DNA of 64,000 nt from an uncultured Gammaproteobacteria bacterium (GTDB lineage Bacteria; Patescibacteriota; Microgenomatia; UBA8517): assembly GCA_965231135.1 (NCBI GenBank), contig OZ246419.1, positions 184,754 to 248,753 on the forward strand, written 5' to 3'. Under the pieces are notes generated by a model that did no database searches, was not told the origin of the DNA, and saw nothing but the letters and a program-made list of their open reading frames with translations. This document shows positions 770-42,780 of the stretch, one piece after another. The translations under genes and the position numbers were made by a program. The number at the start of each line of letters is the position of its first letter. Within the stretch, counting starts at the first letter, position 1.

Positions 770-1330
770 TTAAAGTACTAATGCAAGGCTTATAACTAAC
801 AGTACAGCTCCTGCACCAATACCGATAATTGTTGGTTCAACTGTACCAGAGTTTGGCAATTGAGGGGCTGGGGTTGGAGACGCTGTTGCGATAAACGGTG
901 TTGCTGTTGCAGTAGATGTTGGCGTTGGTGACGGTGTTGGTGATGCTGTTTGGCAAACACAGGAAGTACTATCAGTACATGATGGATTTCTACAAACTCC
1001 GCCTGAGCAAGCCATTCCTGATATACAATCTGAATTGGTTGAACATGTTGTTCCACACTGGGGAACTGGAGTTGGGGTGGGGGTTGGAGAAACTGTTGGC
1101 GTTGGGCTAGCTGACGCTGTTGGGGTAGGTGTTGCAATAGTGAAAGTTAAGGCAGTGCAAGCTGGTGCTGGAGTTGCTGCATGAGGCTCACTGACAGGTG
1201 CATTTGGTGCAACTGCAGTTTGGCGAGATTGATAAAGCTTGATAGCAGTAAAGACCGCAATTCCTGCTAAAACAAGAGTTGCGATGACAATTATTATTGT
1301 GATAATATTTTTCTTTAAAAAATCTTGCAT
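770..1330 (-). CDS. Cys-rich cell-surface protein with Pro/Thr linkers, a candidate sortase substrate
   Basis: Has an N-terminal signal anchor and PTPTPS linkers. Its 8-Cys module PQCGTTCSTNSDCISGMACSGGVCRNPSCTDSTSCVCQ is shared with the next gene. The C terminus carries LPNSG followed by a hydrophobic tail. Confidence 0.5.
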   Translation of the reverse strand: MQDFLKKNIITIIIVIATLVLAGIAVFTAIKLYQSRQTAVAPNAPVSEPHAATPAPACTALTFTIATPTPTASASPTPTVSPTPTPTPVPQCGTTCSTNSDCISGMACSGGVCRNPSCTDSTSCVCQTASPTPSPTPTSTATATPFIATASPTPAPQLPNSGTVEPTIIGIGAGAVLLVISLALVL

Positions 1331-1331
1331 A

Positions 1332-2414
1332 TTAGAACCATTGATTTAAGCTTGCTTCATGAACTTCTGCTGTAATACTGAAACTTGAAACTCCTGATGG
1401 AATTGTATAGACCATATAAAAAGTTGAAGCGTCACCCGGCTTTGTTGATGTAACTGATGGTTGGAGGCTGCCATTGATCGTGAATCTTGCCATGTCTAGA
1501 GTACCAGTTGTCGTTCCGGTTACTGCAAGATTAACGTTTGTACCTGGAGTAAGCTGAGAAAGTTGGGCGATTGTTAAAGGTGCCCAGTTTGTGTCATATG
1601 CTTGTATATTTGAACAGGAAGCAGTAATTGTTGATGGTGTTGGAGTAGGTGTTTGACAGACACACGTTGCGGAAGTTATACAAGAAGGATTTCGACAAAC
1701 TCCTGCAGAGCAAGTCATACCATTTGCACAGTTAGCATTTGTTGTACAAGTACTTCCACATTGAGGAACTGGAGTTGGTATTGGTGTTGGGGCTGGAGTT
1801 TGAGCTGCGGCGCAACTGCAAACACCATTGCCTGAACCGACAACATCTATTTGTTGACAGGAACCTGCAGCTGGGGTTGTACAATAAGTACCAGTACCAA
1901 CTGTTTGGGTACCTTGATTGTTTTGAGAGGTAGGACAATTTGGACCACTGAATCTTTGGATCTGGACTGTGCCTGATGTTACATTAATACAACTTCCCGA
2001 TGCATTCCAATTTGAACCGCTTCCTCCGCCTCCGCCACAATTGTTTCCTCCATTACAAAACCCTCCTTGAGGTGCGCATTCAGGATGATTACTGCTTGAT
2101 GCTGCAGACCACGATCCACCTCTGCCCGCACAAGATCCAGCATCACTGCAGATATTGGAACAATTTCCTGCTGCTTCCTGGGGAATTAATTGTTTATTGT
2201 TTTGATTTTTGACAACTGCGACTCCTGCAACTAATGCCCCAATCATAAGTAGAAGGCTAAACATAGTTACGACGACTCTTTTTAAATTACTTTTTGGGCC
2301 TGGAGTAGAAGATGAAGTAACAACTGGATTTGGATCTGTTGGGCCGATTTGAGAAACTGGCGGAATTACCTGCTCGGTTGGGTTTTGAGGAACAGAACTA
2401 TCCATATATTTCAT
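1332..2414 (-). CDS. secreted Cys-rich protein paralogous to 770..1330
   Basis: Has a TM anchor and Gly/Cys-rich regions. It contains the same 8-Cys module (PQCGSTCTTNANCANGMTCSAGVCRNPSCITSATCVCQ) and PT linkers as its neighbour. Confidence 0.5.
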   Translation of the reverse strand: MKYMDSSVPQNPTEQVIPPVSQIGPTDPNPVVTSSSTPGPKSNLKRVVVTMFSLLLMIGALVAGVAVVKNQNNKQLIPQEAAGNCSNICSDAGSCAGRGGSWSAASSSNHPECAPQGGFCNGGNNCGGGGGSGSNWNASGSCINVTSGTVQIQRFSGPNCPTSQNNQGTQTVGTGTYCTTPAAGSCQQIDVVGSGNGVCSCAAAQTPAPTPIPTPVPQCGSTCTTNANCANGMTCSAGVCRNPSCITSATCVCQTPTPTPSTITASCSNIQAYDTNWAPLTIAQLSQLTPGTNVNLAVTGTTTGTLDMARFTINGSLQPSVTSTKPGDASTFYMVYTIPSGVSSFSITAEVHEASLNQWF

Positions 2415-15235: not shown

Positions 15236-16063
15236 ATGCAAAATTCACTTAAATCAGTTATAAGTACAGCAAAATCTATTTTGATTTTATTACCGGAGAA
15301 TCCATCTTTTGATGAGGTGGCTTCAGCTACGGCTCTTTATCAAGCTATGACAACTGATAAAGATAAAGAGGTAAACGAATATTGCCCAAGCCCAATGATT
15401 GTTGAATATAACCGATTAATTGGCGTAAATAAGATAAAAAGCGAACTTGGAAATAAAAATCTTACTTTAAGTTTTTCAGGATATAATCCTCAAGGAATTG
15501 AGAAAGTTTCCTGGGATATTGACGATGGACAATTTAAATTGACAATAGTTCCAAAAGTGAATGTTGCTCCGCCAAATCAGGATCAAGTAATTGTGGGCTA
15601 CGAAGGAATTGCAGCTGATTATGTCATTTTAATTGGAGGAAAAGGAGATGAAAGTTTCCCAGTTTTGAAAAAAGAAGAGCTTGCAAGTGTAGCACTTGCT
15701 CATGTGGGAATTAACCCATTAACATTGACCGGAAAAACAATTGCATCTTTGGCATCACAAGCTTCAAGTATTTCAGAATTAACAGCAAATTTAATTAAAG
15801 CAAGCGGATACGAAATTACAAACGATATTGCAACAAACTTGCTTATGGGAATTGAAGAAACAACAAACCATTTTGCAAATTCTGGTGTAACTGCTGATAC
15901 ATTTGCACTTATTTCAGAATTAATGCGCGACGGAGGGAAGAGATTGAATCAAGGACAAGTGCAAGCTGAAGATTTTCCAACTGGAGCCATCCCAACTATG
16001 CCAAGCGATGTTCCAACTTCATGGACAGAACCAAAGATTTTTAAAGGGACTTCAGTAAGTTAA
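15236..16063 (+). CDS. NrnA-like DHH/DHHA1 family protein, apparently catalytically degenerate
   Basis: The spacing pattern matches NrnA, but DHH and the Asp ligands are replaced (ILILLPENPSFDEVAS). Confidence 0.35.
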   Translation: MQNSLKSVISTAKSILILLPENPSFDEVASATALYQAMTTDKDKEVNEYCPSPMIVEYNRLIGVNKIKSELGNKNLTLSFSGYNPQGIEKVSWDIDDGQFKLTIVPKVNVAPPNQDQVIVGYEGIAADYVILIGGKGDESFPVLKKEELASVALAHVGINPLTLTGKTIASLASQASSISELTANLIKASGYEITNDIATNLLMGIEETTNHFANSGVTADTFALISELMRDGGKRLNQGQVQAEDFPTGAIPTMPSDVPTSWTEPKIFKGTSVS

Positions 16064-19224: not shown

Positions 19225-19980
19225 TTATTTATTATTCAAAGGAGCAACTAATGGTTTAACGCGGGAGTAAGCTTGAAGAAGAAGCCATCTATCAATTTCA
19301 ATTCCTGGAATTAAGGAAAGTCTGTAACCACGGCCTTCTTTGAAGTTTTCAAGTCCTTGTAGGTTTTCAAAAGAACGCACGATTCTTGCACCCTGGGTTA
19401 GTCCAATTATTATGGTAGGATATATAGGGTAAGCTTCGCCGGCTATTATACTTCCAAAACATAATACAATTTGAAATCCATCCAGTTTGTCAGTTAGAGT
19501 GGTCTTACTAAGAAGTAAGTGTTCAGTGCCTTGTTTTCTAATTGCCTGTTTTATAGCTAAATTAATTTGATTAGACCATTCTGAGGAATTTTTGGTTGCT
19601 AAACCTTTGTCGTTTATTCTTTGTCTTATTTCACTTGTGTTTAAGTTAACTTGTAACTCTGGCCATGAGTAATGTTTACTATTTCCCTTTATATGTTTAT
19701 CTGGATTCAATTCATTTGATTGTATTGCAACTTCGTTTACTTTAGTTGCACCCATAATTGCAGAGTTTCCAGATCTGCCTATAATTTGAGCTTCGACAGA
19801 AGATACGTCACCATTATTTTTACTTACTATTTTTAAATGTCGGAATCCTGCTAAATGTATTAATTGTGTTGCATAAGTTGTGTCTATGCCGATTGAATCT
19901 TCTTGACCGTAAGGAAGCTGAACTTCAGTTCTGACACGGGAACTTTGGGCATTACCTATTGATTGTATTCTTTCTCCCAC
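19225..19980 (-). CDS. hypothetical protein
   Basis: 251-aa ORF convergent with pnp. No recognisable motif. Confidence 0.35.
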   Translation of the reverse strand: MGERIQSIGNAQSSRVRTEVQLPYGQEDSIGIDTTYATQLIHLAGFRHLKIVSKNNGDVSSVEAQIIGRSGNSAIMGATKVNEVAIQSNELNPDKHIKGNSKHYSWPELQVNLNTSEIRQRINDKGLATKNSSEWSNQINLAIKQAIRKQGTEHLLLSKTTLTDKLDGFQIVLCFGSIIAGEAYPIYPTIIIGLTQGARIVRSFENLQGLENFKEGRGYRLSLIPGIEIDRWLLLQAYSRVKPLVAPLNNK

Positions 19981-29422: not shown

Positions 29423-29455
29423 ATAAGCTGAGCTTGTAACACTGCGTGTTATAAT
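29423..29455 (+). promoter_or_regulatory. motif copy ATAAGCTGAGCTTGTA followed by an extended -10 (TGtTATAAT) that gives a leaderless alaS transcript
   Basis: TGTTATAAT at 29447-29455. The alaS ATG at 29462 sits where the transcription start is expected. Confidence 0.4.
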
Positions 29456-29461
29456 AGCTTC

Positions 29462-30796
29462 ATGACTGGAAACGAAGTTCGTAAAAAATATTTAGAGTTT
29501 TTTGAAAAACGAGGACATAAAATAATTAAACCTGCTCCGCTTGTTTTGAAAGACGACCCAACTACTTTGTTTACGTCAGCTGGAATGCAACCATTAGTTC
29601 CATATCTTTTGGGTAAAGCTCATGATGAAGGTAAACGATTAACAGATTCTCAACCTTGTTTTAGATCTCAAGATATTGAAGAGGTTGGTGACAATCGACA
29701 CGATACGTTGTTTGAAATGCTTGGGAATTGGAGTTTAGGAGATTATTTCAAAAAGGAGCAAATCCCCTGGATTTGGGAATTTATTATAAAAGAACTTGGA
29801 CTTAATCCTGAAAATATTCATGTAACACTTTATGAAGGAAATGAAAGCGTACCTAAAGACGAGGAAACATATAAATTGTGGAGAGAATTGGGAATTTCTG
29901 ATGAAAGAATTCATTATTATAAAAATAAAAATTGGTGGAGTATTTCAGGGCCACCTGAAAATATGAGAGATGGAGAAGTAGGAGGACCTGATAGTGAAAT
30001 CTTTTTTGAGTTTGAAAACGTAAAGCACGATCCGAAATATGGTAAAGAATGTCATCCTAATTGTGACTGTGGTAGATTTTTGGAAATTGGGAATTCTGTT
30101 TTTATCCAGTACAAAAAGGTTGACGGGAAACTTGTAGAGCTTCCAAATAAAAATGTGGATTTTGGAGGAGGACTTGAGAGATTAACTGCTGCAACAAGTA
30201 ATGACCCTGATATTTTTAAGTCAGATTTATTTTGGCCTGTCATTGAAAAAATAGAAGAGCTTTCTGGTAAGAAATATGAAGATTATCAATCTTCAATGAG
30301 AATTATTACAGATCACATTAAGGCTTCAACATTTTTGATTGCAAACGGGGTCACCCCAAGTAATAAATTGCAAGGATATGTTTTAAGAAGATTGCTGCGA
30401 CGTGCGGCTCTTCAAATGAGAAATTTAAATATTGATTTGTCTCAAAAAGATTTTAATGAAATGTTTGTTATTGTAGAAAAAGTTTTTGATATTTATTCTT
30501 TATATTTGGATAAAAAAGATTTGGTAAAAGTGCAAGCTGAAATAACTTCTGAACTTGAAAAGTTTGGAAGAGCTTTGGAAAACGGAGTCAAAAGGATAAA
30601 TAAAACTGATATTAAAGATATAGATGAAAAATTTGCATTTGATTTGATGCAAAGTGAGGGATTTCCATTTGAAATCACACAAGAGTTGGTTGGAAAAAAA
30701 GGAGTTAATTTGGATAAAAATAAATTTGAAGAAATGCTTCGCGAACATCAGGAGCTTTCAAGGAAATCTTCAGAGGATAAATTTAAAATTAAATAA
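29462..30796 (+). CDS. alaS: alanyl-tRNA synthetase, catalytic plus tRNA-recognition domains only (no editing or C-Ala domains)
   Basis: FTSAGMQPL, FEMLGNWSLGDYFK and GGGLERL align to AlaRS residues 1 to about 460. The ORF stops at 444 aa, and the next gene is unrelated. Confidence 0.8.
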   Translation: MTGNEVRKKYLEFFEKRGHKIIKPAPLVLKDDPTTLFTSAGMQPLVPYLLGKAHDEGKRLTDSQPCFRSQDIEEVGDNRHDTLFEMLGNWSLGDYFKKEQIPWIWEFIIKELGLNPENIHVTLYEGNESVPKDEETYKLWRELGISDERIHYYKNKNWWSISGPPENMRDGEVGGPDSEIFFEFENVKHDPKYGKECHPNCDCGRFLEIGNSVFIQYKKVDGKLVELPNKNVDFGGGLERLTAATSNDPDIFKSDLFWPVIEKIEELSGKKYEDYQSSMRIITDHIKASTFLIANGVTPSNKLQGYVLRRLLRRAALQMRNLNIDLSQKDFNEMFVIVEKVFDIYSLYLDKKDLVKVQAEITSELEKFGRALENGVKRINKTDIKDIDEKFAFDLMQSEGFPFEITQELVGKKGVNLDKNKFEEMLREHQELSRKSSEDKFKIK

Positions 30797-30816
30797 GTTC
30801 TGCTACAATGAATTAA

Positions 30817-32916
30817 ATGCAAGAGTACTTCTGGTCTTTATGTGTGGAGATAAACTCTCTTCAGGCTGCTATCTGGACTGTAAAAGACGGCAGTGCTCAG
30901 ATTGTTTGTACCTCAAATCCAGTAGTATATGAAGATGATGAGACTTTGGTGAAAGCTGCCGATGAAGTTTTATCAAACTGCGTACAACTTCTTCCTGAGG
31001 AAATTGCAGAACCGACAAAATGTGTCTTTGGAGTTTCAGCATCTTGGGTTGTTGATGGACAAATTGAAAAAGCACATCTTGAGAAAATAAAATTAATTTG
31101 CAATAAACTTTCTTTAACTCCAACAGGATTTGTAGTTTTATCTGAGGCAATTTCTTATTTTGAAAAATCAACGGAAAAAACTCCGCTTTCGGCAATTTTG
31201 GTGGGAGTTTATGCGCAGAGTATTGACGTCACGATATTTCGCCTTGGAAATTTAACAGGCTCTGTCAATGTTGCAAGAAGCACGAGTATTACTGACGATG
31301 TTACTGAAGGACTTGCAAGATTTGAGAATGGAGATGCGTTGCCTTCTAGATTTTTGGTTTATGGAAGTAATGACGGGGATTTGGAAGAATTTAAACAGGA
31401 GCTAATTAAAGCTGACTGGGAGCGTGCGAATGAAAATATTAAATTTTTACACACCCCACAAGTGGAAATTTTTAATACCACTGCAAAAATGGCGGCAATA
31501 AGCCTTGCTGGAGCTGCCGAGACAGGAACTGCAACTGAAATTGTTTTTGAGCAAGCCCTGGAAACTGCGAAAGAAAATAAGCCTGAGATGCTTAGCGAAG
31601 ACATCAATAATGTGACAGAGCCTGAAAGTAAAAAGAGTTTGTTCGAATCCGAATTCGACAGTGTTGATCCTGCATCGCTTGGATTTGGAAATGGCTTTAA
31701 TACAACTCCACAAGAAGTAAAAGAAAACATTCAAAATACAATTCAGAATTTTGAACCGCAAGTAATTAAAAATAAAATGCAGGACTTTAAATTGCCGAAA
31801 TTTAAAAACACTAGAATTTTAAAAGAAAACTTTTTGTTTGTAGGAGTAATAGCTTTGTTTTTTATTTTGGTAATTGGATTTTGCTATGTATGGTTTGTTC
31901 CAAAAGCAACAGTAACAATTTTCATATCTCCACAGAAAATAAATGAAACAAAACAGGTGAAGTTTGATACTAATGCAAGTGGAGTTAATGCAAGTACACT
32001 TACAATTCCTGCGAAAATTGCAATAGCTTCTGTCAGTTCTTCAAAAACAAAAAGCACAACTGGAACGACAGTTGTTGGAACTCCATCTAAAGGAAGCGTG
32101 ACTTTTTATAATGTGGGAGGTTCGACAACAATTTCTGCTGGGACAACTCTTTCTGCATCAAGCCTTAATTTTAGTTTGGATAATGATGTACAAATAGCGA
32201 GCGCTTCGGGAGCGGCAGCGGCTTCTTCTGCAAACGGAAATATAACAGCCCAACAAGTTGGTGCTGATTCAAATTTGGCAAGCGGAACTTATTTTACTGT
32301 AGGAAATTTTTCATCAAGCCTTATTCAGGCAAAAAATGGAAATGATTTGGCAGGAGGAAGCAGCCAGGAAGTTGCCGCTGTTTCAAGCGATGATGCAACT
32401 AGCCTTCAAAACGATTTGAAACAAGATCTGACAACAAACGGAACGAATAATTTGAAATCGCAACTGAATGGAGGAAATTTACTGATACCTGACTCTGTAG
32501 CTTTGACAATTAGTTCTTCGACTTTTGATAACAAAGTGGGAGCACAGGCAAGTACTGTAAAATTAAATGAAAGTGCAAAAGTTACTGGAACAACTTTTAC
32601 AAAAAGCGATATGAATAATTTGGCAAAACAAATTTTTGCAAGCGAAATTCCTAGCGGCTATACATTAACTGATGACGCAATTGATTATCAGCCAGGTAAA
32701 ACATCGACACAATTTATAATTAACTTGCTGCCTGTGACTGATGCAAACAAAATTAAACAGGAAATTTTAGGAAAGAATATAAATGATTTGAAAAATGTTT
32801 TGGGAAATATACAAGGGCTTGAGGATGTACAAGTAACGGGGACTCCAAAATTATTGCAGCTGCCCTTCTTGCCCCATGTAGTTGATCATATTACAATTCA
32901 GTTTGTGGCGAAATGA
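30817..32916 (+). CDS. large bitopic membrane protein: cytoplasmic N domain of about 330 aa, one TM helix, and an extracellular Ser/Thr/Gly-rich domain
   Basis: TM helix at FLFVGVIALFFILVIGFCYVWFV. The N domain is faintly FtsA/PilM-like. It is coupled to the sortase gene by a 4-nt overlap. Confidence 0.4.
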   Translation: MQEYFWSLCVEINSLQAAIWTVKDGSAQIVCTSNPVVYEDDETLVKAADEVLSNCVQLLPEEIAEPTKCVFGVSASWVVDGQIEKAHLEKIKLICNKLSLTPTGFVVLSEAISYFEKSTEKTPLSAILVGVYAQSIDVTIFRLGNLTGSVNVARSTSITDDVTEGLARFENGDALPSRFLVYGSNDGDLEEFKQELIKADWERANENIKFLHTPQVEIFNTTAKMAAISLAGAAETGTATEIVFEQALETAKENKPEMLSEDINNVTEPESKKSLFESEFDSVDPASLGFGNGFNTTPQEVKENIQNTIQNFEPQVIKNKMQDFKLPKFKNTRILKENFLFVGVIALFFILVIGFCYVWFVPKATVTIFISPQKINETKQVKFDTNASGVNASTLTIPAKIAIASVSSSKTKSTTGTTVVGTPSKGSVTFYNVGGSTTISAGTTLSASSLNFSLDNDVQIASASGAAAASSANGNITAQQVGADSNLASGTYFTVGNFSSSLIQAKNGNDLAGGSSQEVAAVSSDDATSLQNDLKQDLTTNGTNNLKSQLNGGNLLIPDSVALTISSSTFDNKVGAQASTVKLNESAKVTGTTFTKSDMNNLAKQIFASEIPSGYTLTDDAIDYQPGKTSTQFIINLLPVTDANKIKQEILGKNINDLKNVLGNIQGLEDVQVTGTPKLLQLPFLPHVVDHITIQFVAK

Positions 32917-33575
32917 TTAAGAAAAAAAGAATTAAAATAATTGGAGCTGTTTGCGGATTTTTGGGATTCATTGTGATTGCATGGATTTTCTACCCAATTG
33001 TTGCTTATCAAATTAATGCACCAAAATTAATGACTTTTTTGTCCCCGATTGCACAAGCTGACGGTGTAATAAACACAGATGCAAATATTAATGATACTGA
33101 TGCTGCCACCTGGTTTCCGACTAAAGCTTCTAATTTATTTACAAATGATCCTGTTTCTTTTTATACAATTACAATACAAAGACTTGGAATAGTTAATGCA
33201 AAAGTTGCGATTGGAGGAGAGGATTTGTCACAATCTTTGATTCAATACCCAGGGACTGCGCTTCCCGGGCAAATAGGTAATACAACAATTTTTGGGCATA
33301 GCGTCTTGCCTGCTTTTTATAACCCTAAAAATTATTTAACAATTTTTTCTACAATTCCAACTCTTAATGAAGGAGATATTATAACGGTCAATTATGATGG
33401 AATAACCTATAAATATAGCGTTGAGCAAAAATATATAGTGGATCCGTCTGACGTGCAAGTGCTTTCTCAGGATGAAAGTGATTCGTTTTTGACTTTAGTT
33501 ACTTGTGTACCTCCCGGGCTTACAACTTATAGGGGAGTAATTAAGGCAAGGATTATGCCAGTAGGAGAGAATTAG
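32913..33575 (+). CDS. sortase family transpeptidase
   Basis: N-terminal TM anchor. The catalytic residues are His in TTIFGHSV, Cys in the TLxTC motif TLVTCVP, and Arg in TYRGVIKARI. Confidence 0.7.
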   Translation: MIKKKRIKIIGAVCGFLGFIVIAWIFYPIVAYQINAPKLMTFLSPIAQADGVINTDANINDTDAATWFPTKASNLFTNDPVSFYTITIQRLGIVNAKVAIGGEDLSQSLIQYPGTALPGQIGNTTIFGHSVLPAFYNPKNYLTIFSTIPTLNEGDIITVNYDGITYKYSVEQKYIVDPSDVQVLSQDESDSFLTLVTCVPPGLTTYRGVIKARIMPVGEN

Positions 33576-33576
33576 T

Positions 33577-33960
33577 ATGATAATAGCTTTTGATTTTGGA
33601 TTAAAAAAAGTTGGAGTTGCAATTGCCTCTTTGAAATTGGCAGAACCGCTTGTGGTGATTAGATATGAAACTCAGGAAGAGCTATTTAAAAAATTAAAAG
33701 AACTAATAGAGAAGGAAAAACCAGAAACGGTTGTTGTTGGTTTATCTGAAGGAATAATGGAAGAGAAATCAAAAGAGTTTGGAGATAAAATTTTTGAAGT
33801 GTTTAATATTCCGGTGAGATTTTCAGATGAAACACTTTCAACTCAAGATGCACAGAATTTATCGCTTGCAGCGGGATTAAAGAGGAAAAAAAGAAAAGAA
33901 ATGGAAGATGCTTATGCAGCAGCAGTGATGCTACAGAATTTTATTGATTTGAACTTATGA
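33577..33960 (+). CDS. ruvX: YqgF/RuvX-like nuclease (putative pre-16S rRNA nuclease)
   Basis: MIIAFDFGLKKVGVAIAS is the RNase H-like YqgF N terminus. The protein is 127 aa. Confidence 0.7.
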   Translation: MIIAFDFGLKKVGVAIASLKLAEPLVVIRYETQEELFKKLKELIEKEKPETVVVGLSEGIMEEKSKEFGDKIFEVFNIPVRFSDETLSTQDAQNLSLAAGLKRKKRKEMEDAYAAAVMLQNFIDLNL

Positions 33961-34481
33961 AGATTAGCTTTACACCTAAATCTCAAGATCGTAGAATTGT
34001 TGAGGCATTTGAAAGCTATAAAGACATTTGGAATAAAGATGGTTATAGAATTATTTCTTCAATAGAAAAAGTTACTGGGCTTAAATTTTCAAAAGATCAT
34101 TTAGAAGCTACTATCATTGATGGGCCAACTAGTCATTCTCATCCTTTACAACTTTCTTGTTTTGGTATTGATAAGGGAAGAAAAAGAACATTAATGCATG
34201 AATTAGGACATATTATTTTGGATGATAATGAAATTGATGTGCTAGCGGATAATGATGAAGACTTGAGTTTTGTAAATCACAAACTTCTTGATTTGGTTTT
34301 ATTTGATATTTTTTGTGAGTTTTATAACGGTGATGAGGAGATTGCAAGGCAACATGTTGAAAGAGATAAAGAAATTAATCCTCAATATTATTCGGATGCT
34401 TGGGATTGGGCATTATCTATGAATAGAGAAGAGAGACAAAAGTTATTTGCAAAAGCTCGGGAGTCTAAGAGATTCCCATAG
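33957..34481 (+). CDS. hypothetical protein with an HExxH motif
   Basis: TLMHELGHIILDD; otherwise acidic and unassigned. Confidence 0.35.
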   Translation: MKISFTPKSQDRRIVEAFESYKDIWNKDGYRIISSIEKVTGLKFSKDHLEATIIDGPTSHSHPLQLSCFGIDKGRKRTLMHELGHIILDDNEIDVLADNDEDLSFVNHKLLDLVLFDIFCEFYNGDEEIARQHVERDKEINPQYYSDAWDWALSMNREERQKLFAKARESKRFP

Positions 34482-34492
34482 AAGTTTAATGG

Positions 34493-34732
34493 TTGCATAA
34501 GGATTTCAATTTGTTAAACTACATTAATATGTTTAAGAATGTAATTGCTCCAATACAAGCATGGCTCCTTTCTCAAGGGAAATGTGTGGGATGCGGAACT
34601 CCGCTTTCTGAAGGCTCAAAGAAAAAATTTAAAGGGGATAATGAGCAGGTAACTTGCAAGAAATGTGGACGTATTTATGTTCATGAAACAAAAACAAACA
34701 AATATCGCCGAGCACTTCTTTCTGAAGTTTAA
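34493..34732 (+). CDS. small zinc-ribbon protein
   Basis: Cys ligands at CVGCG...CKKCG, 79 aa. Confidence 0.35.
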   Translation: MHKDFNLLNYINMFKNVIAPIQAWLLSQGKCVGCGTPLSEGSKKKFKGDNEQVTCKKCGRIYVHETKTNKYRRALLSEV

Positions 34733-34750
34733 ATAGTTTATACTCTTATC

Positions 34751-35704
34751 GTGAAGAAGTTAATTCTACTTTTTTTGGCCTTTATAATTGTAATTGTTAT
34801 TGCCGGTTTCTGGTTTGTTAATGGTCTTACTCCAAAAGATAATAATTCGCAAACAAAAAGATTTGTGATTGATCAGGGAGAAACAGCAAGTGCAATAGGA
34901 ATTGATTTAGCCAAAAATAACTTAATAAAAAGCGCGACGGCATTTAGAATTTATTCGCAAGTTACCCAAACTGCCAGAAAAATTAAACCTGGATCTTATG
35001 ATTTGAGCAGTAATCAGTGGGTGCCACAAATAATTGCCAAGCTTTTAAATGGGCCGACAGAAATTTGGGTAACAATTCCTGAAGGACTTCGTAAAGAAGA
35101 GATTGCTGAGAAGTTTACTGACTTTGATAAATTTAATAAACAGGAATTTTTAAATTTGACTAAAAATGATGAGGGATATTTATTCCCTGATACATATTTA
35201 CTTCCAAGAGATGCTACAGCAAGCACAATTGTGAAGATAATGACGGATAATTTTAATAAACAATACACAGAGGCAGCAAAAAATAAAACCAATCCCCTTT
35301 CTAAAAATGATATCGTGATTTTGGCCAGTATTGTTCAGAGAGAAGCGATAACTGCCGAGGATATGCGAGGAGTTGCATCAGTTCTAATGAACCGTTACAA
35401 CTCTGGAATGTCGCTTGGATCTGATGTGACCTTGGAATATGCACTTGGACAACAACCGGACGGAGGCTGGTGGAAAAAAGATCTAACAGTTGACGATTTG
35501 GCTTTAGATTCGCCTTACAATACAAGAACGAATGCCGGATTTCCGCCGACACCAATAAGTAATCCAGGATTGGTTGCTTTGGAAGCAGCAGCAAACCCAC
35601 CGAACACTTCGTATTTATATTATTTGTCAGATTCTGATGGAAAACTTCATTTTGCTCAAACCTTGGAAGAGCATAATGCCAATATACAGAAGTATTTACA
35701 ATAG
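34751..35704 (+). CDS. mltG: endolytic murein transglycosylase MltG (YceG-like)
   Basis: N-terminal TM helix, then KIKPGSY, LASIVQREA and NTRTNAGFPPTPISNPG motifs. Confidence 0.8.
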   Translation: MKKLILLFLAFIIVIVIAGFWFVNGLTPKDNNSQTKRFVIDQGETASAIGIDLAKNNLIKSATAFRIYSQVTQTARKIKPGSYDLSSNQWVPQIIAKLLNGPTEIWVTIPEGLRKEEIAEKFTDFDKFNKQEFLNLTKNDEGYLFPDTYLLPRDATASTIVKIMTDNFNKQYTEAAKNKTNPLSKNDIVILASIVQREAITAEDMRGVASVLMNRYNSGMSLGSDVTLEYALGQQPDGGWWKKDLTVDDLALDSPYNTRTNAGFPPTPISNPGLVALEAAANPPNTSYLYYLSDSDGKLHFAQTLEEHNANIQKYLQ

Positions 35705-35736: not shown

Positions 35737-35778
35737 CGACCTTAGGTCTACTTGGAGTGTAGACATAATTCTCGTCTG

Positions 35779-38700
35779 ATGGCAAATAAACAAAATCGCC
35801 GCAATTTTGGCAGAACAGAAAACAATTTACCTGAGCTTGATTTGTCTTTGGTTCAAAGACAATCTTGGGATTGGTTTTTAAAAGAAGGAATTTCGGAAGA
35901 ACTTACAAATATTTCTCCAGTTGAAGATTTTGCAGGAAAAAATTGGGAACTTTCTTTTGGTAAACATACTCTTGAAGCCTCTCAAGTTACCCCAAAAGAA
36001 GCAAGAGAAAAAGGAATAACATACTCAACTCCATTTAAAGTCGAAACAACACTCACAAATAAAAGAACAGGAGCATCTGTCACACAGGAAGTTTTCTTTG
36101 GAAATATTCCACAAATGACAACTGTTGGAACATTTATTATTAATGGAATTGAAAGAACTGTTATTAACCAAATCGTTCGAAGCCCAGGAGCATATTTCTC
36201 AGGAACTTTGGATGCAGCAAGCGGCCGTATGCTTTATAAAGCAGAAATAAGACCACTTCATCACGGAAGCTGGCTTGAATTTGAAACTGGACGAAACGAT
36301 GTTATTTCAGCTCGCATTGATCGACGCCGAAAGGTAAATGCCGCAACCATACTTCGCGCTCTTGGAATTTATTCAAATGATGAAATTACAAGAATTTTTG
36401 CTGATGTGAATAAAGACGGAAATCATAATTATGTACAAAAGACTATTGAAAAAGATCCAACAAGAACAAGAGAAGATGCACTTCTTGAAATTTACAAGAA
36501 ACTTCGACCTGGAGAACCAGCTCTTTTGGATAATGCAGAAACACTTTTCCATAACCTTTTCTTTGATAACCGCCATTACGACTTAGGAAAAGTTGGAAGA
36601 TATAAAATTAATAAGAGATTAGGACTTAATGTTGAAAATAATAAACAAAACTGGGTACTTACAAAAGATGATATTGTCCAAACACTTCATTATTTAATTG
36701 GACTTCAAAATGGAATTGGACGAGTTGATGATATTGACCATCTTTCAAACAGACGCCTTCGATGTGTCGGGGAACTTGTTGCAACTCATGCATTTCGTAC
36801 AGGACTTTTAAGACTTGAAAGATCTATAAAAGAGAAAATGTCTTTGGTTTCTCAAGAAGAAAAACCAAATCCATCAGCTTTAATTAACGCAAGACCATTA
36901 ATCGCTTCTTTGAATGAATTTTTCAGAAGCAATCAGCTTTCAACAATACTTGATAATACAAATCCACTTTCAGAAATAGATAATTTACGAAGAGTATCTG
37001 TTTTAGGACCTGGAGGAATTAATCGAGAACGTGCGAGCTTTTCAATCCGAGACGTTAATCCTTCTCAATATGGAAGAATTGATCCTGTCAGGTCTCCAGA
37101 AGGAATGAACATTGGACTTGTTACTTATTTAACTCTTTATGCACGTGTAAACGAATTTGGATTTATTGAGACACCTTACAAAAAAGTTGATAATAGAAAA
37201 ATTACTAATGAAATTGTTTATTTAACTGCTGACGATGAAGAGAAATATTACATTACTCACAACGGAATTAATATTGATGACAGCGGAAAAATAACAGACG
37301 ACAGAGTTGCTATCCGATATGCAGGAAACTTTACAGAAGGATCTTCAAAGTTGGTTCAATATATCGATTTGACACCAAGGCAGGTATTTGGAGCATCTGC
37401 ATCTTTAATTCCTTTCCTTGACCACGATGAAGGAAACCGTGCTCTTATGGGAAGTAACATGCAATGTCAGGCTGTTCCACTTGTTGCGCCAAGCTCACCA
37501 GTTGTTGGAACAGGAATGGAAGCGACTGTTGCCTCTTCAATGGGAAGAGTTGTAAAAGCTGAATATCCAGGAACTGTTTCTTTTGTTGATGCAGACAAAA
37601 TTGAAATTAAACTTGATAAGCAAAGCTTGTCAGCTAAAGCTGATAAAAAATTGCCTGACGATGCTGTTTTGTCTAGAGATGGTAAAACAATTACTTATTA
37701 TTTGACTAAATTCTGGAGAACTTCACAATCAACTTGTTATAACCAGAAAGCTAAAGTAGTTCTCGGACAGAAATTAAACCCTGGAGACTTAATAATTGAT
37801 GGACCTGCTACAGAAGACGGAGAACTTGCACTGGGTCAAAATTTAGTTGTAGCTTATGCATCAATTTCCGGATACGGATTTGAAGATGCAATTTTGATTT
37901 CTGACAGAATAGTTAAGGATGACCTACTTACTTCAATTAACATTCGTGAATATACAGCTGACGTTGTTGAAACAAAACTTGGACCTGAAGTTGTTACAAA
38001 AGATATTCCAAACGTTTCTGAAGACCAATTAGCTAATTTGGCAAGTGATGGAATTGTTGTTGTCGGAGCTGAAGTTCATCCAAATGACATCTTGGTCGGA
38101 AAAATTGCACCAAAAGGTGAAATGGAACTTACTGCAGAAGAAAGACTTCTTCGTGCTATCTTTGGAGAGAAAGCAAGAGAAGTCCGAGATACATCACTTC
38201 GAGTGCCACACGGAGAAGAAGGAATTGTTATTGATGTACAAGTACTTAGCAAAGAAAAAGGAGATGAACTTGCACCTGGAGTAATATCTTCTGTAATTGT
38301 TAAAGTTGCACAACTTCGTAAAGTAACTGTAGGAGACAAAATTGCAGGGCGACATGGAAACAAAGGTGTTATTTCAAAAATAATGCCTGAAGCTGATATG
38401 CCTTACTTGCCAGATGGAACTCCAGTTGATTTGGTTATATCACCTCTTTCGGTACTTGCTCGTATGAATCTTGGACAATTACTCGAATGTCATTTGGGAT
38501 GGGCACTTGATAAGAATCATTCGAAAGCAAGCGTACCTGTCTTTGATAAGATTCCAGAAAGCAAGATTCACGATGAACTTAAAGAGGCTGGACTTCCAGT
38601 TTCTGGAAAAACAAGACTTATTGATGGAAGAACTGGAGAGGCACTTTCTGAAGATACAGTTGTTGGAATTGGATACATCATGAAGCTTAAGCACATGATT

Positions 38701-41700
38701 GAAGATAAGACACATGCACGTAGCACTGGTCCATATTCTCTTGTTACACAACAACCACTTGGAGGAAAAGCACAAATGGGAGGACAAAGACTTGGAGAAA
38801 TGGAAGTCTGGGCACTTGAAGCACATAGAGCAGCTCATACTTTGCAGGAAATGTTGACAATAAAATCTGATGATATTGTAGGACGCGCTGCAGCATTTGG
38901 AGCAATTGTTAAAGGACAGGAAATTCCTGAAGCTAAAATACCTGAAAGCTTTAAAGTATTGGTTCGAGAACTTAATGCACTTGGACTTGCAATTGATGTT
39001 GATGGAACAATGGCAGCAGTTACTGAAGAGCACACAACTGATGACGGAGTAGTAATCCAAGAAAAGAAACAACCAGTTACTGATCCACTTTTAAAGCTTC
39101 GCGAACTCGAAGATCTTAAATCTTTGCAAATTAAACTTGCCAGCGAAGGTGAAATAAGATCCTGGAGCCGAGGAGAAGTTACAAAACCAGAGACTATAAA
39201 CTACAGAACACTTAAACCTGAAAAAGACGGACTTTTTGATGAGAGAATATTTGGTCCAACACGCGACTGGGAATGTTACTGTGGAAAGTATAAAAGAATT
39301 CGTTATAAGGGAGTAATTTGCGATAAATGTGGAGTTGAAGTTACAGAAAGCAGAGTTCGACGAGAGAGAATGGGACATATTGCACTTGCAGCTCCTGTAG
39401 TTCATGTATGGTTTTTCAAAGGAGCACCAAGCAAAGTATCTTTACTTCTTGATTTGCCTCCTCGCGCTATTGAGCAAGTTGTCTATTTTGCAAGATATAT
39501 TGTTATGAGCGTTGATGATAAAAAGAGAAAAGAAGCAATTGATGTCTTAATAAAGACTCGAGAAGAAAAAATTAAAGAAACTCGAGAGATTTCTGCAGAA
39601 CGCCGAGAACTTATAAAACAAGACGGAGAAGATCGTAAAGGAAAGATAGCAAACAGAATCAAAGATAAAGAACAAGCAGCTCTTGCAATCAGCGAAGTTG
39701 ATCTTGATGTACGTAAGAAAGAAACTACTTTGGTTGAAGAAGAAAAAGCAACTATTGAGAAAACAACCGAACTTTTTGATCGCATGACTGATTTGGTTAA
39801 GAAAATTAGTCCTTTTGGATTTTTATCTGAGGATGAATACGATCAGCTTTCAACTTATGATGTATCTGATTTTCTTGAAGTAAAAATGGGAGCAGAAGCT
39901 CTTCTTATAGCCTTAAGCAAACTTAATTTGGATGAACTTTCAAAGAGTTTGCGAGCAGAACTTGAAGGATTGCAAGGAAAAGGTGCAAGATATTTGAAAG
40001 TTGCAAAAAGACTTAAGCTTATTGACGGACTTCGTGAGGCAAAAGTAAGCCCAACAAGCGTTATTTTGAAAGTAATCCCAATACTTCCACCAGATTTACG
40101 ACCAATGGTCCAACTTGCTGGAGGAAGATTTGCAACTTCTGACTTGAATGATTTATATAGACGCGTAATAAATAGAAATAACAGACTTAAGCATCTTATT
40201 GGCCTTGGTGCACCAGATATTATTTTAAGGAATGAAAAAAGAATGTTGCAGGAAGCTGTTGACTCTTTAATTGATGCATCTCAGCGAAAAGCTATGCGAC
40301 GTGGACGAGGAAGACTTGCACTTCGATCACTTTCTGACATGCTTAAAGGAAAGCAAGGAAGATTTAGAGCAAATCTTTTGGGTAAGCGTGTGGATTACTC
40401 CGGACGTTCAGTTATTATTGTTGGGCCTGAACTTAATTTGAATCAATGTGGACTTCCAAAGGAAATGGCGCTGGAAATGTTTAAGCCATTTGTACTTCGA
40501 GAAGTTATTAAGCGAGAAATTGCACCTAATGTGAAATCTGCAAAGAATTTACTTGAACGCCGACCACCAGAAGTGTTTGATATTTTGGAAGAAATTACAA
40601 AAGATCATCCAGTGTTACTTAATCGTGCACCAACACTTCATAAACTTGGAATTTTGGCATTTTACCCAGTTTTAATTGAAGGAAGCGCTATCAGACTTCA
40701 TCCAGCAGTATGTTCTGGGTTTGGAGCTGACTTTGACGGAGATCAAATGGCAGTACATGTCCCACTTTCTAAGAAAGCAATCGAAGAAGCTAAGACTCTT
40801 ATGATGTCTGATAAGAATTTACTTAAGACATCTGACGGATCGCCTGTTGCAACGCCCGCTTCAAAGGAAATGGCGCTTGGAGTTTATTATTTCACAAGTT
40901 TAGATACAAGAATGAAAGCTTCTGAAACAATTTTTGCTGACAAAGCTGAAGCAATATTTGCTTATCAAATTGGAAAAGTAGCTTTAAGACAACAAATCAA
41001 GGTCAAAGTTGATAATGAAGTAAATGAAACAACTGTTGGACGCATTTTATTTAATGAAATACTTCCAGAAGGATTTAGATTTGTAAACGAAAACGTTTCT
41101 TCTGGAATTATTAAAGATTTAGTCACTGAAGCTTATACAAAAGTATCTCAAGAGAGACTTGTAAAACTTATTGATGATATTAAGAACCTTGGATTTGTTG
41201 GAGGAACAATTTCAGGACTTTCATTTGCGGTGTCGGATGCTGCAATATTTGAAGGAAAAGCAAAAATTATTAAGGAAGCAGATAAAAAAGTCGACGAAAT
41301 TGAAAAAAGTTTCCATCAAGGTCTTATTACAAACGAAGAAAAGAAAAGAAGCATTCAACAAATCTGGATTGAAACAACTGAAGAAATTGCTGACAAAACC
41401 TGGAATGTAATACCTGCTGATTCACCAATTCGCACAGTTATTGATGCTAAAGTGGGACGCACTTCCCGTGACCAGATTAAGCAGCTTGGTGGAATGAGAG
41501 GTTTGGTCGTTGATCCGCTTGGAAAAATCGTTGAACTTCCTGTCAAAAGCAACTTTAGAGAAGGGCTTTCAGTTTTTGAATATGTTGCATCAGGACGCGG
41601 ATCTCGTAAAGGACTTACTGATACAGCTTTGAAAACAGCTGATGCAGGATATCTTACACGTCGATTAGTTGATGTAACTCATGATGTATTAATTCGTGAA

Positions 41701-42780
41701 GAAGACTGCGGAACAAAAGACGGAATTCTTATTAAAAAATCAGTACGAGGAGGAAGTTTCTACAAGAGAATTTTTGGAAGATTTGATACAAACGGAGAAC
41801 TTATTGATGAAAAGCGAGCAAAAGAACTGGCAGATGATGCAAATGTTACAGAATTTGTAGTTCGTTCCCCTCTTACATGTAAGACAAGATTTGGAGTTTG
41901 CCAGAAGTGTTATGGATGGGACCTTTCAAATAAACAGGTTGTAGAACTTGGAATGCCAATTGGAGTTATTGCGGCACAATCAATTGGAGAACCTGGAACT
42001 CAGCTTACACTTAGAACCAAACATAGCGGAGGAGTTGTTGGAGCTGACGTTACACAAGGACTTCCAAGAGTTGAAGAGTTATTTGAATCTCGTATTCCAA
42101 AAACAGTATCGCCAATTTCTGAAATAGCTGGAAAAGTATCTATCAAAGAGAGCGAAGACGGGAATGTTGTTAAAGTCACAAGTGTTAATACCAAACCAAA
42201 AGAAGAGCGAGAATATATTATCGCAAAGACAAACAAGATTAGTGTTGAGGATGGACAACTTATCGATGCAGGAACACAACTAGCTAGCGGATACCTTGAT
42301 ATTAAAGAAATATTACAAGTACGAGGACTTGGAGCAGCACAAGAATATTTGGTAAATGAATTACAGGCAGTTTATGAATCACAGGGAATTTCAATTAATG
42401 ATCGCCATTTTGAAATCATTGTCCGCAAGATGTGTGATACAGTCCGCATTTTGACAAGCGGAGACAGCAGATTCTTGCCAGAAGAGCTTACTGATAAATC
42501 AACATTTGAAGAAGAAGTTGAAAAAGTTATCGCATCAGGCGGAGAAGCAGCAACTGCAAGACAAATTATACTTGGAGTCACAAAGAGAGCTTTGTACACA
42601 AACAGCTGGCTATCTAGCGCATCTTTCGAACAGACAACTGATGTTTTGGCCGAGTCAGCACTAGAAGGAAGCAAAGATCGCTTACTTGGACTTAAAGAGA
42701 ATGTTATTATTGGCCGCCTAATTCCAATTGATCCAAAGAGAGCGGCTCTTCATGGACAAGCTGAGCCTGCTGCTGTATAA
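35779..42780 (+). CDS. rpoBC: fused DNA-directed RNA polymerase beta-beta' subunit (rpoB-rpoC in one ORF)
   Basis: The ORF is continuous. The beta C terminus ([27 protein letters not shown]...[17 protein letters not shown]) joins, through a linker of about 45 aa, the beta' N terminus ([35 protein letters not shown] plus the Zn finger CYCGKYKR...CDKCGVEV). The start is taken at the first ATG (MANKQ); the track ORF begins 27 nt upstream at a TTG. Confidence 0.9.
37616..37646 (+). repeat. in-frame copy of the 31-nt intergenic palindromic element, inside rpoB
   Basis: ATAAGCAAAGCTTGTCAGCTAAAGCTGATAA encodes [10 protein letters not shown]. It matches the rpsO-pnp spacer element at 30 of 31 positions. 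Confidence 0.6.

Follow-up and report, generated by a model that had tools for sequence, protein, structure and literature searches.

The 64,000-nt stretch of DNA analysed here (hereafter the window; contig OZ246419.1 of assembly GCA_965231135.1) encodes an alanyl-tRNA synthetase (AlaRS) of 444 aa that consists of the aminoacylation domain only, that is, the catalytic part and a complete tRNA-recognition part, without an editing domain. We refer to the protein as mini-AlaRS and to its gene as mini-alaS. With a probability of about 85%, we take mini-AlaRS to be a functional housekeeping enzyme of Patescibacteria that arose from the ~600-aa small AlaRS of these bacteria by a clean deletion of the editing domain in situ. 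The truncated form is conserved, is under purifying selection and sits at the ancestral alaS locus, and comparable truncations recur in other Patescibacteria.

An earlier description of this DNA, made without database searches (the sequence-only reading), had recognized the product as AlaRS reduced to its aminoacylation and tRNA-recognition domains, with neither editing nor C-Ala domain. The motifs it named (FTSAGMQPL, FEMLGNWSLGDYFK and GGGLERL) are all present in the 444-aa product, and domain searches bear the assignment out. In Pfam, the protein matches PF01411 (tRNA-synt_2c) only, at profile positions 1-436 of 552 (E = 6.9e-109). The search with hidden Markov models (HMMs) for tRNA_SAD (PF07973) and DHHA1 (PF02272) that this reading had proposed was run and gave no match to either in the 444-aa product, even at E <= 1. 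The class II catalytic domain spans residues ~1-245 and the helical tRNA-recognition domain residues ~246-440, the latter complete through its last helix both in the alignment and in an AlphaFold2 model (predicted local distance difference test score, 84; predicted template-modelling score, 0.84). Mini-AlaRS aligns end to end with the catalytic fragments of Aquifex aeolicus (1riq, residues 4-429) and Escherichia coli (3hxu, residues 6-439), and its model has template-modelling (TM) scores of 0.82-0.84 to both. Homology starts at residue 2, and the open reading frame (ORF) contains no earlier in-frame start. The best NCBIfam model, NF002436 (595 aa), is covered at positions 1-443 with 418.1 bits; because this score lies below the family cut-off of 529 bits, the GenBank name is "alanine--tRNA ligase-related protein". 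An identical protein (HWA52207.1) is encoded on an 810,692-bp contig of a Patescibacteria metagenome-assembled genome.

Among the best 120 homologue clusters, 35 are 402-461 aa long, contain PF01411 only and share 58-80% identity with mini-AlaRS, and the remaining 85 are 562-624 aa long and contain PF01411 plus PF07973. In the alignment, the short forms terminate at ...HQELSRKSSxxKFKIK*, whereas the long forms run on through FKGGLADHS...HTATHLL...CGGPHV, which is the editing domain. The C-terminal ends of all short forms fall 0-3 residues from the same point, the FK|GGL junction. The HxxxH and CxxxH editing motifs are kept in 85 of the 85 small forms, so the domain that was lost was an intact editing site. 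C-Ala is absent from the ~600-aa relatives too. The absence of the editing domain noted by the sequence-only reading therefore stands, but the canonical 870-aa enzyme that it used as a baseline does not: the proper reference is the Patescibacteria small AlaRS, and since this enzyme already lacks C-Ala, only the editing domain is newly lost in the mini form.

The genomic position of mini-alaS is that of an ordinary alaS. The window and four related loci (L002, L003, L088 and L173) share one gene order: P-type ATPase (minus strand), alaS, a gene of ~700 aa that we call p699, sortase, RuvX, further genes and YceG. In Gottesmanbacteria (L084) and Woesebacteria (L085), an alaS that still has its editing domain stands immediately before the ~700-aa gene, sortase and RuvX, and the alaS-(p699)-ruvX-yceG linkage extends to Saccharibacteria whose AlaRS is of the small type and to bacteria whose AlaRS is canonical. 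In the Saccharibacteria locus L171, a mini-alaS lies upstream of FtsA-like, Baseplate_J-like, RuvX and YceG genes. As the same neighbours stand behind editing-competent alaS, mini-alaS appears to be the housekeeping orthologue from which the editing domain was removed in place. An exact-8-mer contig scan, which returned small and canonical alaS only and none of the window's clade, served as the source of controls for synteny and for the promoter comparison described below.

Compared with orthologues at 80% and 65% identity, mini-alaS has a ratio of nonsynonymous to synonymous substitution rates (dN/dS) of 0.07-0.09, with synonymous sites saturated, and 105 positions are near-invariant in both mini and editing-competent small forms. 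Residues R68, D233 and G235 are the counterparts of E. coli R69, D235 and G237, and N211 adjoins the position of E. coli N212; all four are invariant among the 120 homologues, as is the residue that reads U70 of the G3:U70 pair (Table 1). The catalytic domain also contains an invariant Cys/His cluster (H189/C197-H198-P-N-C201-D-C203) that Patescibacteria AlaRS of the mini and of the small type have in common. Neither Cys nor His occurs at these positions in the catalytic fragments of E. coli and A. aeolicus that were aligned, and the cluster may be a metal site. From the conservation of residues, the dN/dS values and the activity of equivalent fragments of other AlaRS, we infer that mini-AlaRS alanylates tRNA-Ala.

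Classification with HMMs of 170 loci from a metagenome scan identified 9 alaS of the mini, 107 of the small and 31 of the canonical type. The mini genes at L112 and L113 (GC 0.64-0.67) and at L131 (GC 0.51) are closest to Saccharibacteria small forms rather than to the window's clade. With the L131 protein as query, a group of Saccharibacteria mini-AlaRS of 466-470 aa emerged at 64-98% identity, with 90% clusters of 711, 219, 100, 62 and 31 sequences and contigs of up to 788 kb. Small forms of 637 aa, at 72-78% identity, are scattered among these proteins. Representatives of ~440-470 aa in the 50%-identity library that lay on short contigs could not be validated and were left unused.

On a neighbour-joining tree of the catalytic region (200 bootstraps), the window lineage (A) and the Saccharibacteria lineage (B) are split at 99.5-100% bootstrap. 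Monophyly of all lineage-B minis was recovered in 0 of 200 bootstraps, L112 and L113 joined the other lineage-B minis in 0 of 200, and one small form is nested inside the minis at 82%. Within the window lineage, resolution is poor, with short-form monophyly at no more than 34%. Given the zero values for monophyly and the split between A and B, the phylogeny shows that the editing domain was lost at least three times independently, each time 0-3 residues from the FK|GGL junction. The sequence-only reading had considered a split AlaRS to be unusual in bacteria; the truncation is real, but it is not a one-off, as it defines a conserved clade and recurs in Patescibacteria.

We propose the following scheme. 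The ancestor would have been a Patescibacteria small AlaRS composed of a catalytic, a tRNA-recognition and an editing domain without C-Ala, and the editing domain would have been cleanly deleted from it in situ. The resulting mini-AlaRS, presumably the cell's only AlaRS, would activate alanine and aminoacylate tRNA-Ala with it, relying on acceptor-stem (G3:U70) recognition alone. Because C-Ala is absent from the whole small-AlaRS family, acceptor-stem-only binding would predate the truncation. The positions that separate mini from small forms are V6, K30 and Y348 only, none of them in the amino-acid pocket, and misactivation of Ser and Gly is therefore expected as in any AlaRS. Mini-AlaRS itself would not hydrolyse Ser-tRNA-Ala or Gly-tRNA-Ala, and proofreading would be either supplied in trans (AlaX for Ser, DTD for Gly) or absent and tolerated. 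The odds of these two outcomes are roughly equal.

In the first case, a free-standing AlaX- or AlaRS-beta-like protein, possibly together with DTD, would clear Ser- and Gly-tRNA-Ala, and fidelity would be normal. This explanation assigns the gene the same identity as the one we prefer and differs only on the consequence, and we regard it as a serious possibility that falls somewhat short of an even chance. AlaX is widespread, specific for Ser-tRNA-Ala and acts in trans, and DTD clears Gly-tRNA-Ala (PMC7373986, PMC6918089); a working split AlaRS exists in Nanoarchaeum equitans (PMC10036535); and repeated independent loss of a cis domain is easiest if a redundant factor is already present in the phylum. 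Our searches, however, found no such factor. An editing-domain HMM built from the 85 long-form C-termini, which detects canonical AlaRS editing domains at ~1e-40, found nothing in the six-frame ORFs of the window, and tblastn with the same 85 C-termini found no remnant in any of its frames. No free-standing editing ORF was present in the window or in seven mini loci (L001-L003, L088, L131, L171 and L173; 195 kb), and the same holds for 2.5 Mb of fetched, mostly Patescibacteria, loci. The candidate of an editing protein adjoining mini-alaS was thus rejected for the window and the mini-form loci. When the editing domain of the closest small form was used for a database search, the best 120 matches listed were all short. 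Seven of these were checked, and each supposedly free-standing match that was inspected proved to be either a fragment at a contig end or a small alaS with a frameshift (P0133, P0169, P0182, P0226 and P0229; L084-L087 and L170); among the 120 listed, none lay on a contig whose length fits a mini-form genome. We note that in the L086, L087 and L170 drafts frameshifts break alaS into overlapping N- and C-terminal ORFs that could pass for a split AlaRS or AlaX.

In the second case, there would be no editing in cis or in trans, and raised misincorporation of Ser and Gly at Ala codons would be tolerated; such a "statistical proteome" has been suggested for other host-dependent organisms with reduced genomes. 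We give this outcome about the same credence, below one half. Consistent with it are the at least three independent and clean losses in a phylum of reduced, host-dependent cells, the lack of an editing homologue in any mini-form sequence examined, and the lack of a compensating change in the active site, a candidate that we rejected given that V6, K30 and Y348 all lie outside the pocket. Degenerated editing sites have also been described in other synthetases of host-restricted, small-genome bacteria (Melnikov et al. 2018, as summarized in PMC7373986). Against it, AlaRS editing has been described as protected to an unusual degree during evolution, by several checkpoints that are redundant (PMC6918089). 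The inspected sequence covers less than 10% of each mini-form genome, which makes the evidence against trans-editing weak and also counts against the absence of editing.

We tentatively suggest, as a possibility rather than an expectation, that several lineages, namely a Microgenomates-like clade to which this genome belongs, the abundant Saccharibacteria and a group rich in GC, lack Ser-tRNA-Ala proofreading both in cis and in trans. If so, no cellular organism living without AlaRS editing would have been known before them, and the repeated, independent loss at one and the same junction would be a sign that selection for fidelity at alanine codons is relaxed in episymbiotic bacteria with reduced genomes. 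Should AlaX be absent as well, the need to solve the "serine paradox", presumed to be universal, would have natural exceptions; should AlaX be present, these bacteria would provide natural cases of a fully trans-edited AlaRS.

Several observations weigh against mini-AlaRS as the complete housekeeping enzyme. The inspected sequence comprises 64 kb of a genome of ~0.8 Mb plus ~20 kb at each of the seven mini loci, and a second alaS or a free-standing editing protein could lie elsewhere in the genome. The Asp400 with which the E. coli enzyme reads G3 is replaced by Gln397, which hints at an altered mode of acceptor-stem recognition; however, Gln is found at this position in both the mini and the small, editing-competent forms of the window lineage, and Asp in the Saccharibacteria lineage. 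No tRNA-Ala gene on which G3:U70 could be checked was found in the window or related loci. Finally, the pocket of mini-AlaRS gives no sign of a compensating gain in specificity.

An alternative that we consider improbable is that mini-alaS is a non-housekeeping paralogue or a decaying remnant and that a complete alaS elsewhere serves translation. The "related protein" name given by NCBI would fit this explanation, as would the partial coverage of the genome by our search, but the name is accounted for by the score of 418 bits against the 529-bit cut-off. Moreover, mini-alaS lies at the ancestral locus, with the neighbours that stand behind the editing-competent alaS of its relatives, is under strong purifying selection, keeps the catalytic residues and, of the two G3:U70 readers, the Asn, and has the same length in hundreds of sequences. 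The genome is small (~0.8 Mb), and among the best 120 matches no other lies on the 810,692-bp contig. A sequencing or assembly artefact, in which a frameshift or premature stop interrupts an ordinary small alaS (or leaves a pseudogene), does have precedents in the frameshifted or contig-end alaS fragments of related drafts (L086, L087 and L170), but it is effectively refuted by sequence comparison, and the truncation taken to be real and conserved, given that a Logan contig from an independent assembly encodes the identical protein, as does the NCBI assembly, the stop position is common to ~35 homologue clusters and hundreds of Saccharibacteria sequences from many assemblies, no frame downstream has editing-domain coding potential and the next gene begins 21 nt past the stop codon.

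The sequence-only reading had also proposed that the mini-alaS transcript is leaderless, and comparison with related loci strengthens this proposal. In five of five lineage-A loci (the window, L002, L003, L088 and L173, the last four encoding proteins at 60-80% identity to that of the window), TATAAT is placed exactly 6 nt before the ATG amid diverged flanks, and none of the five has a Shine-Dalgarno (SD) motif at mini-alaS; in the window, the 41-nt spacer before the gene contains nothing SD-like. In L002, L003 and L088, a -35-like hexamer is present 17 nt upstream, and L173 has an extended -10 with a terminator hairpin just upstream. The mini-alaS mRNA is therefore probably leaderless and monocistronic, with transcription predicted to start at or near the ATG. 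A -10-like hexamer 5-9 nt before the start, without an SD, precedes 36 of 101 small-AlaRS genes compared to 0 of 31 canonical alaS, of which 25 have an SD. Judging from these promoter comparisons, the leaderless geometry is a frequent habit of Patescibacteria and unrelated to the truncation. Of the 77 genes predicted across the window, 13 carry a -10-like hexamer 5-9 nt ahead of the start codon and just 15 an SD-like motif, and leaderless or SD-independent initiation seems common in this genome.

Table 1. Positions of mini-alaS, its key codons and flanking elements, and of other features noted in the window
Feature	Position	Strand	Remark
mini-alaS	29462..30796	+	ATG start; 444-aa alanyl-tRNA synthetase
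Extended -10, TGtTATAAT (TGTTATAAT)	29447..29455	+	6 nt separate the hexamer from the ATG
Cys/His cluster codons	30026..30070	+	H189 ... C197-H198-P-N-C201-D-C203, catalytic domain
Asn301 codon	30362..30364	+	Equivalent to E. coli Asn303, U70 reader of G3:U70; invariant in 120/120 mini and small homologues
Gln397 codon	30650..30652	+	Position of E. coli Asp400 (G3 reader)
alaS-to-next-gene spacer	30797..30816	+	20 nt; too short for an editing domain and without a trace of one
Downstream neighbours	30817..35704	+	p699 (FtsA-like and Baseplate_J-like), sortase, RuvX, two small ORFs, YceG/MltG
p699	30817..32916	+	699 aa
rpoB-rpoC fusion	35752..42780	+	Single ORF of 2342 aa
Pro/Thr-rich proteins	770..2414	-	Two adjacent proteins, 186 and 360 aa
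Conserved-looking ORF	15236..16063	+	275 aa, after infB; no Pfam match
Conserved-looking ORF	19225..19980	-	251 aa; no Pfam match

The gene downstream of mini-alaS had been described as unrelated to AlaRS, and this is correct: p699 has an FtsA/PilM-like N-terminus, a transmembrane segment and a weak match to Baseplate_J. It is always found downstream of alaS and is followed by sortase, and in the Saccharibacteria loci L131 and L171 it is represented by two separate genes. Within the 20-nt spacer behind alaS, p699 has a -10 of its own (TGCTACAAT), followed by 7 nt and the ATG.

Other features of the window were noted in passing. The rpoB and rpoC genes are fused, with RpoB domains preceding RpoC domains in one ORF; the fusion is also present in L003 and L088 (2344-2345 aa), and the genes are separate in two Woesebacteria loci, L085 and L173. 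Assembly GCA_040960095.1 has two long contigs (749,656 bp, L003, and 688,316 bp, L088), each with one mini-alaS locus. The mini-AlaRS of L003 and L088 cluster apart, at 65% and 64% identity to the window protein, and this assembly seems to hold two related genomes. The two Pro/Thr-rich proteins near the start of the window are probably secreted and have a Cys-rich module in common (QCG.TC.TN..C..GM.CS.GVCRNPSC..S..CVCQT). An Rfam scan of the window gave no match.

AlaRS has been described as the one synthetase that keeps a four-domain prototype throughout life (PMC10036535), and the editing of Ser-tRNA-Ala by AlaRS is deemed so important that free-standing AlaX backs it up (PMC7373986, PMC6918089). 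The closest ancestral type of mini-AlaRS is the small AlaRS of the candidate phyla radiation (CPR) and DPANN, which has catalytic, ATL and editing domains and no beta-barrel or C-Ala (bioRxiv 10.1101/2023.05.29.542759). This enzyme (NF002436/PRK01584, 595 aa) is the direct ancestor type; its identity to mini-AlaRS is 55-60% along all 444 aa, and small AlaRS of the window's lineage have in common with mini-AlaRS the Cys/His cluster, Gln at the position of E. coli D400, the genomic locus and the absence of beta-barrel and C-Ala. It differs in keeping the editing domain with HxxxH/CxxxH, before which mini-AlaRS stops at FK|GGL.

The split AlaRS of N. equitans is likewise cellular, with the N-terminal catalytic part as a separate polypeptide. 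However, its break falls inside the tRNA-recognition domain, which is complete in mini-AlaRS, and the alpha subunit needs beta (the rest of the recognition domain, the editing domain and C-Ala) for activity and G3:U70 specificity (PMC10036535). Neither the window nor the 195 kb of related mini loci contained a beta-like partner ORF. Closer in extent are AlaRS-N453 of A. aeolicus (1riq) and AlaRS-441 and -461N of E. coli (3hxu), which have the same boundaries and fold as mini-AlaRS, as reflected in the TM scores above. These are laboratory truncations of 870-aa enzymes that are active in vitro, whereas mini-AlaRS is natural and under purifying selection. Efficient charging of tRNA-Ala and of acceptor-stem helices has been described for A. 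aeolicus N453 as well as for the mini-AlaRS of Tupanvirus (PMC10036535).

The Tupanvirus enzyme (TuAlaRS, 461 aa; Antika et al. 2023) is, according to its authors, the only natural synthetase composed of the aminoacylation domain alone (PMC10036535), and the architecture of mini-AlaRS is the same, with a catalytic part and complete tRNA-recognition part. The two differ in other respects. TuAlaRS is viral and related to the eukaryotic AlaRS of the amoebal host, whereas mini-AlaRS is bacterial and cellular and derives from small AlaRS. TuAlaRS lacks both G3:U70 readers (P and T), whereas mini-AlaRS keeps the Asn, and the Saccharibacteria group the Asp as well. The virus replicates in a host with a complete AlaRS, whereas mini-AlaRS presumably has no other AlaRS beside it. 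The nearest relatives of mini-AlaRS are the Patescibacteria small AlaRS, with no indication of common descent with TuAlaRS, and its origin is, by these relationships, independent of the viral enzyme.

A full-text literature search returned no report of an AlaRS lacking the editing domain in CPR, Patescibacteria or Saccharibacteria, although its coverage was incomplete and a prior report is possible. Cellular bacteria carry an aminoacylation-domain-only AlaRS at the housekeeping alaS locus, where it is conserved, kept under purifying selection and evolved at least three times. Matched comparisons are available, as a closed Woesebacteria chromosome (CP066693.1; assembly GCA_016432525.1) carries the mini form, and the presence of the editing domain (637 aa) or its absence (466-468 aa, as on the contig encoding MDO4271487.1 or on ERZ24773359 NODE_2) is all that sets close Saccharibacteria relatives apart. 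Set beside the viral enzyme, the split archaeal enzyme and the laboratory fragments, mini-AlaRS is a new, cellular and independently evolved form of the aminoacylation-domain-only AlaRS.

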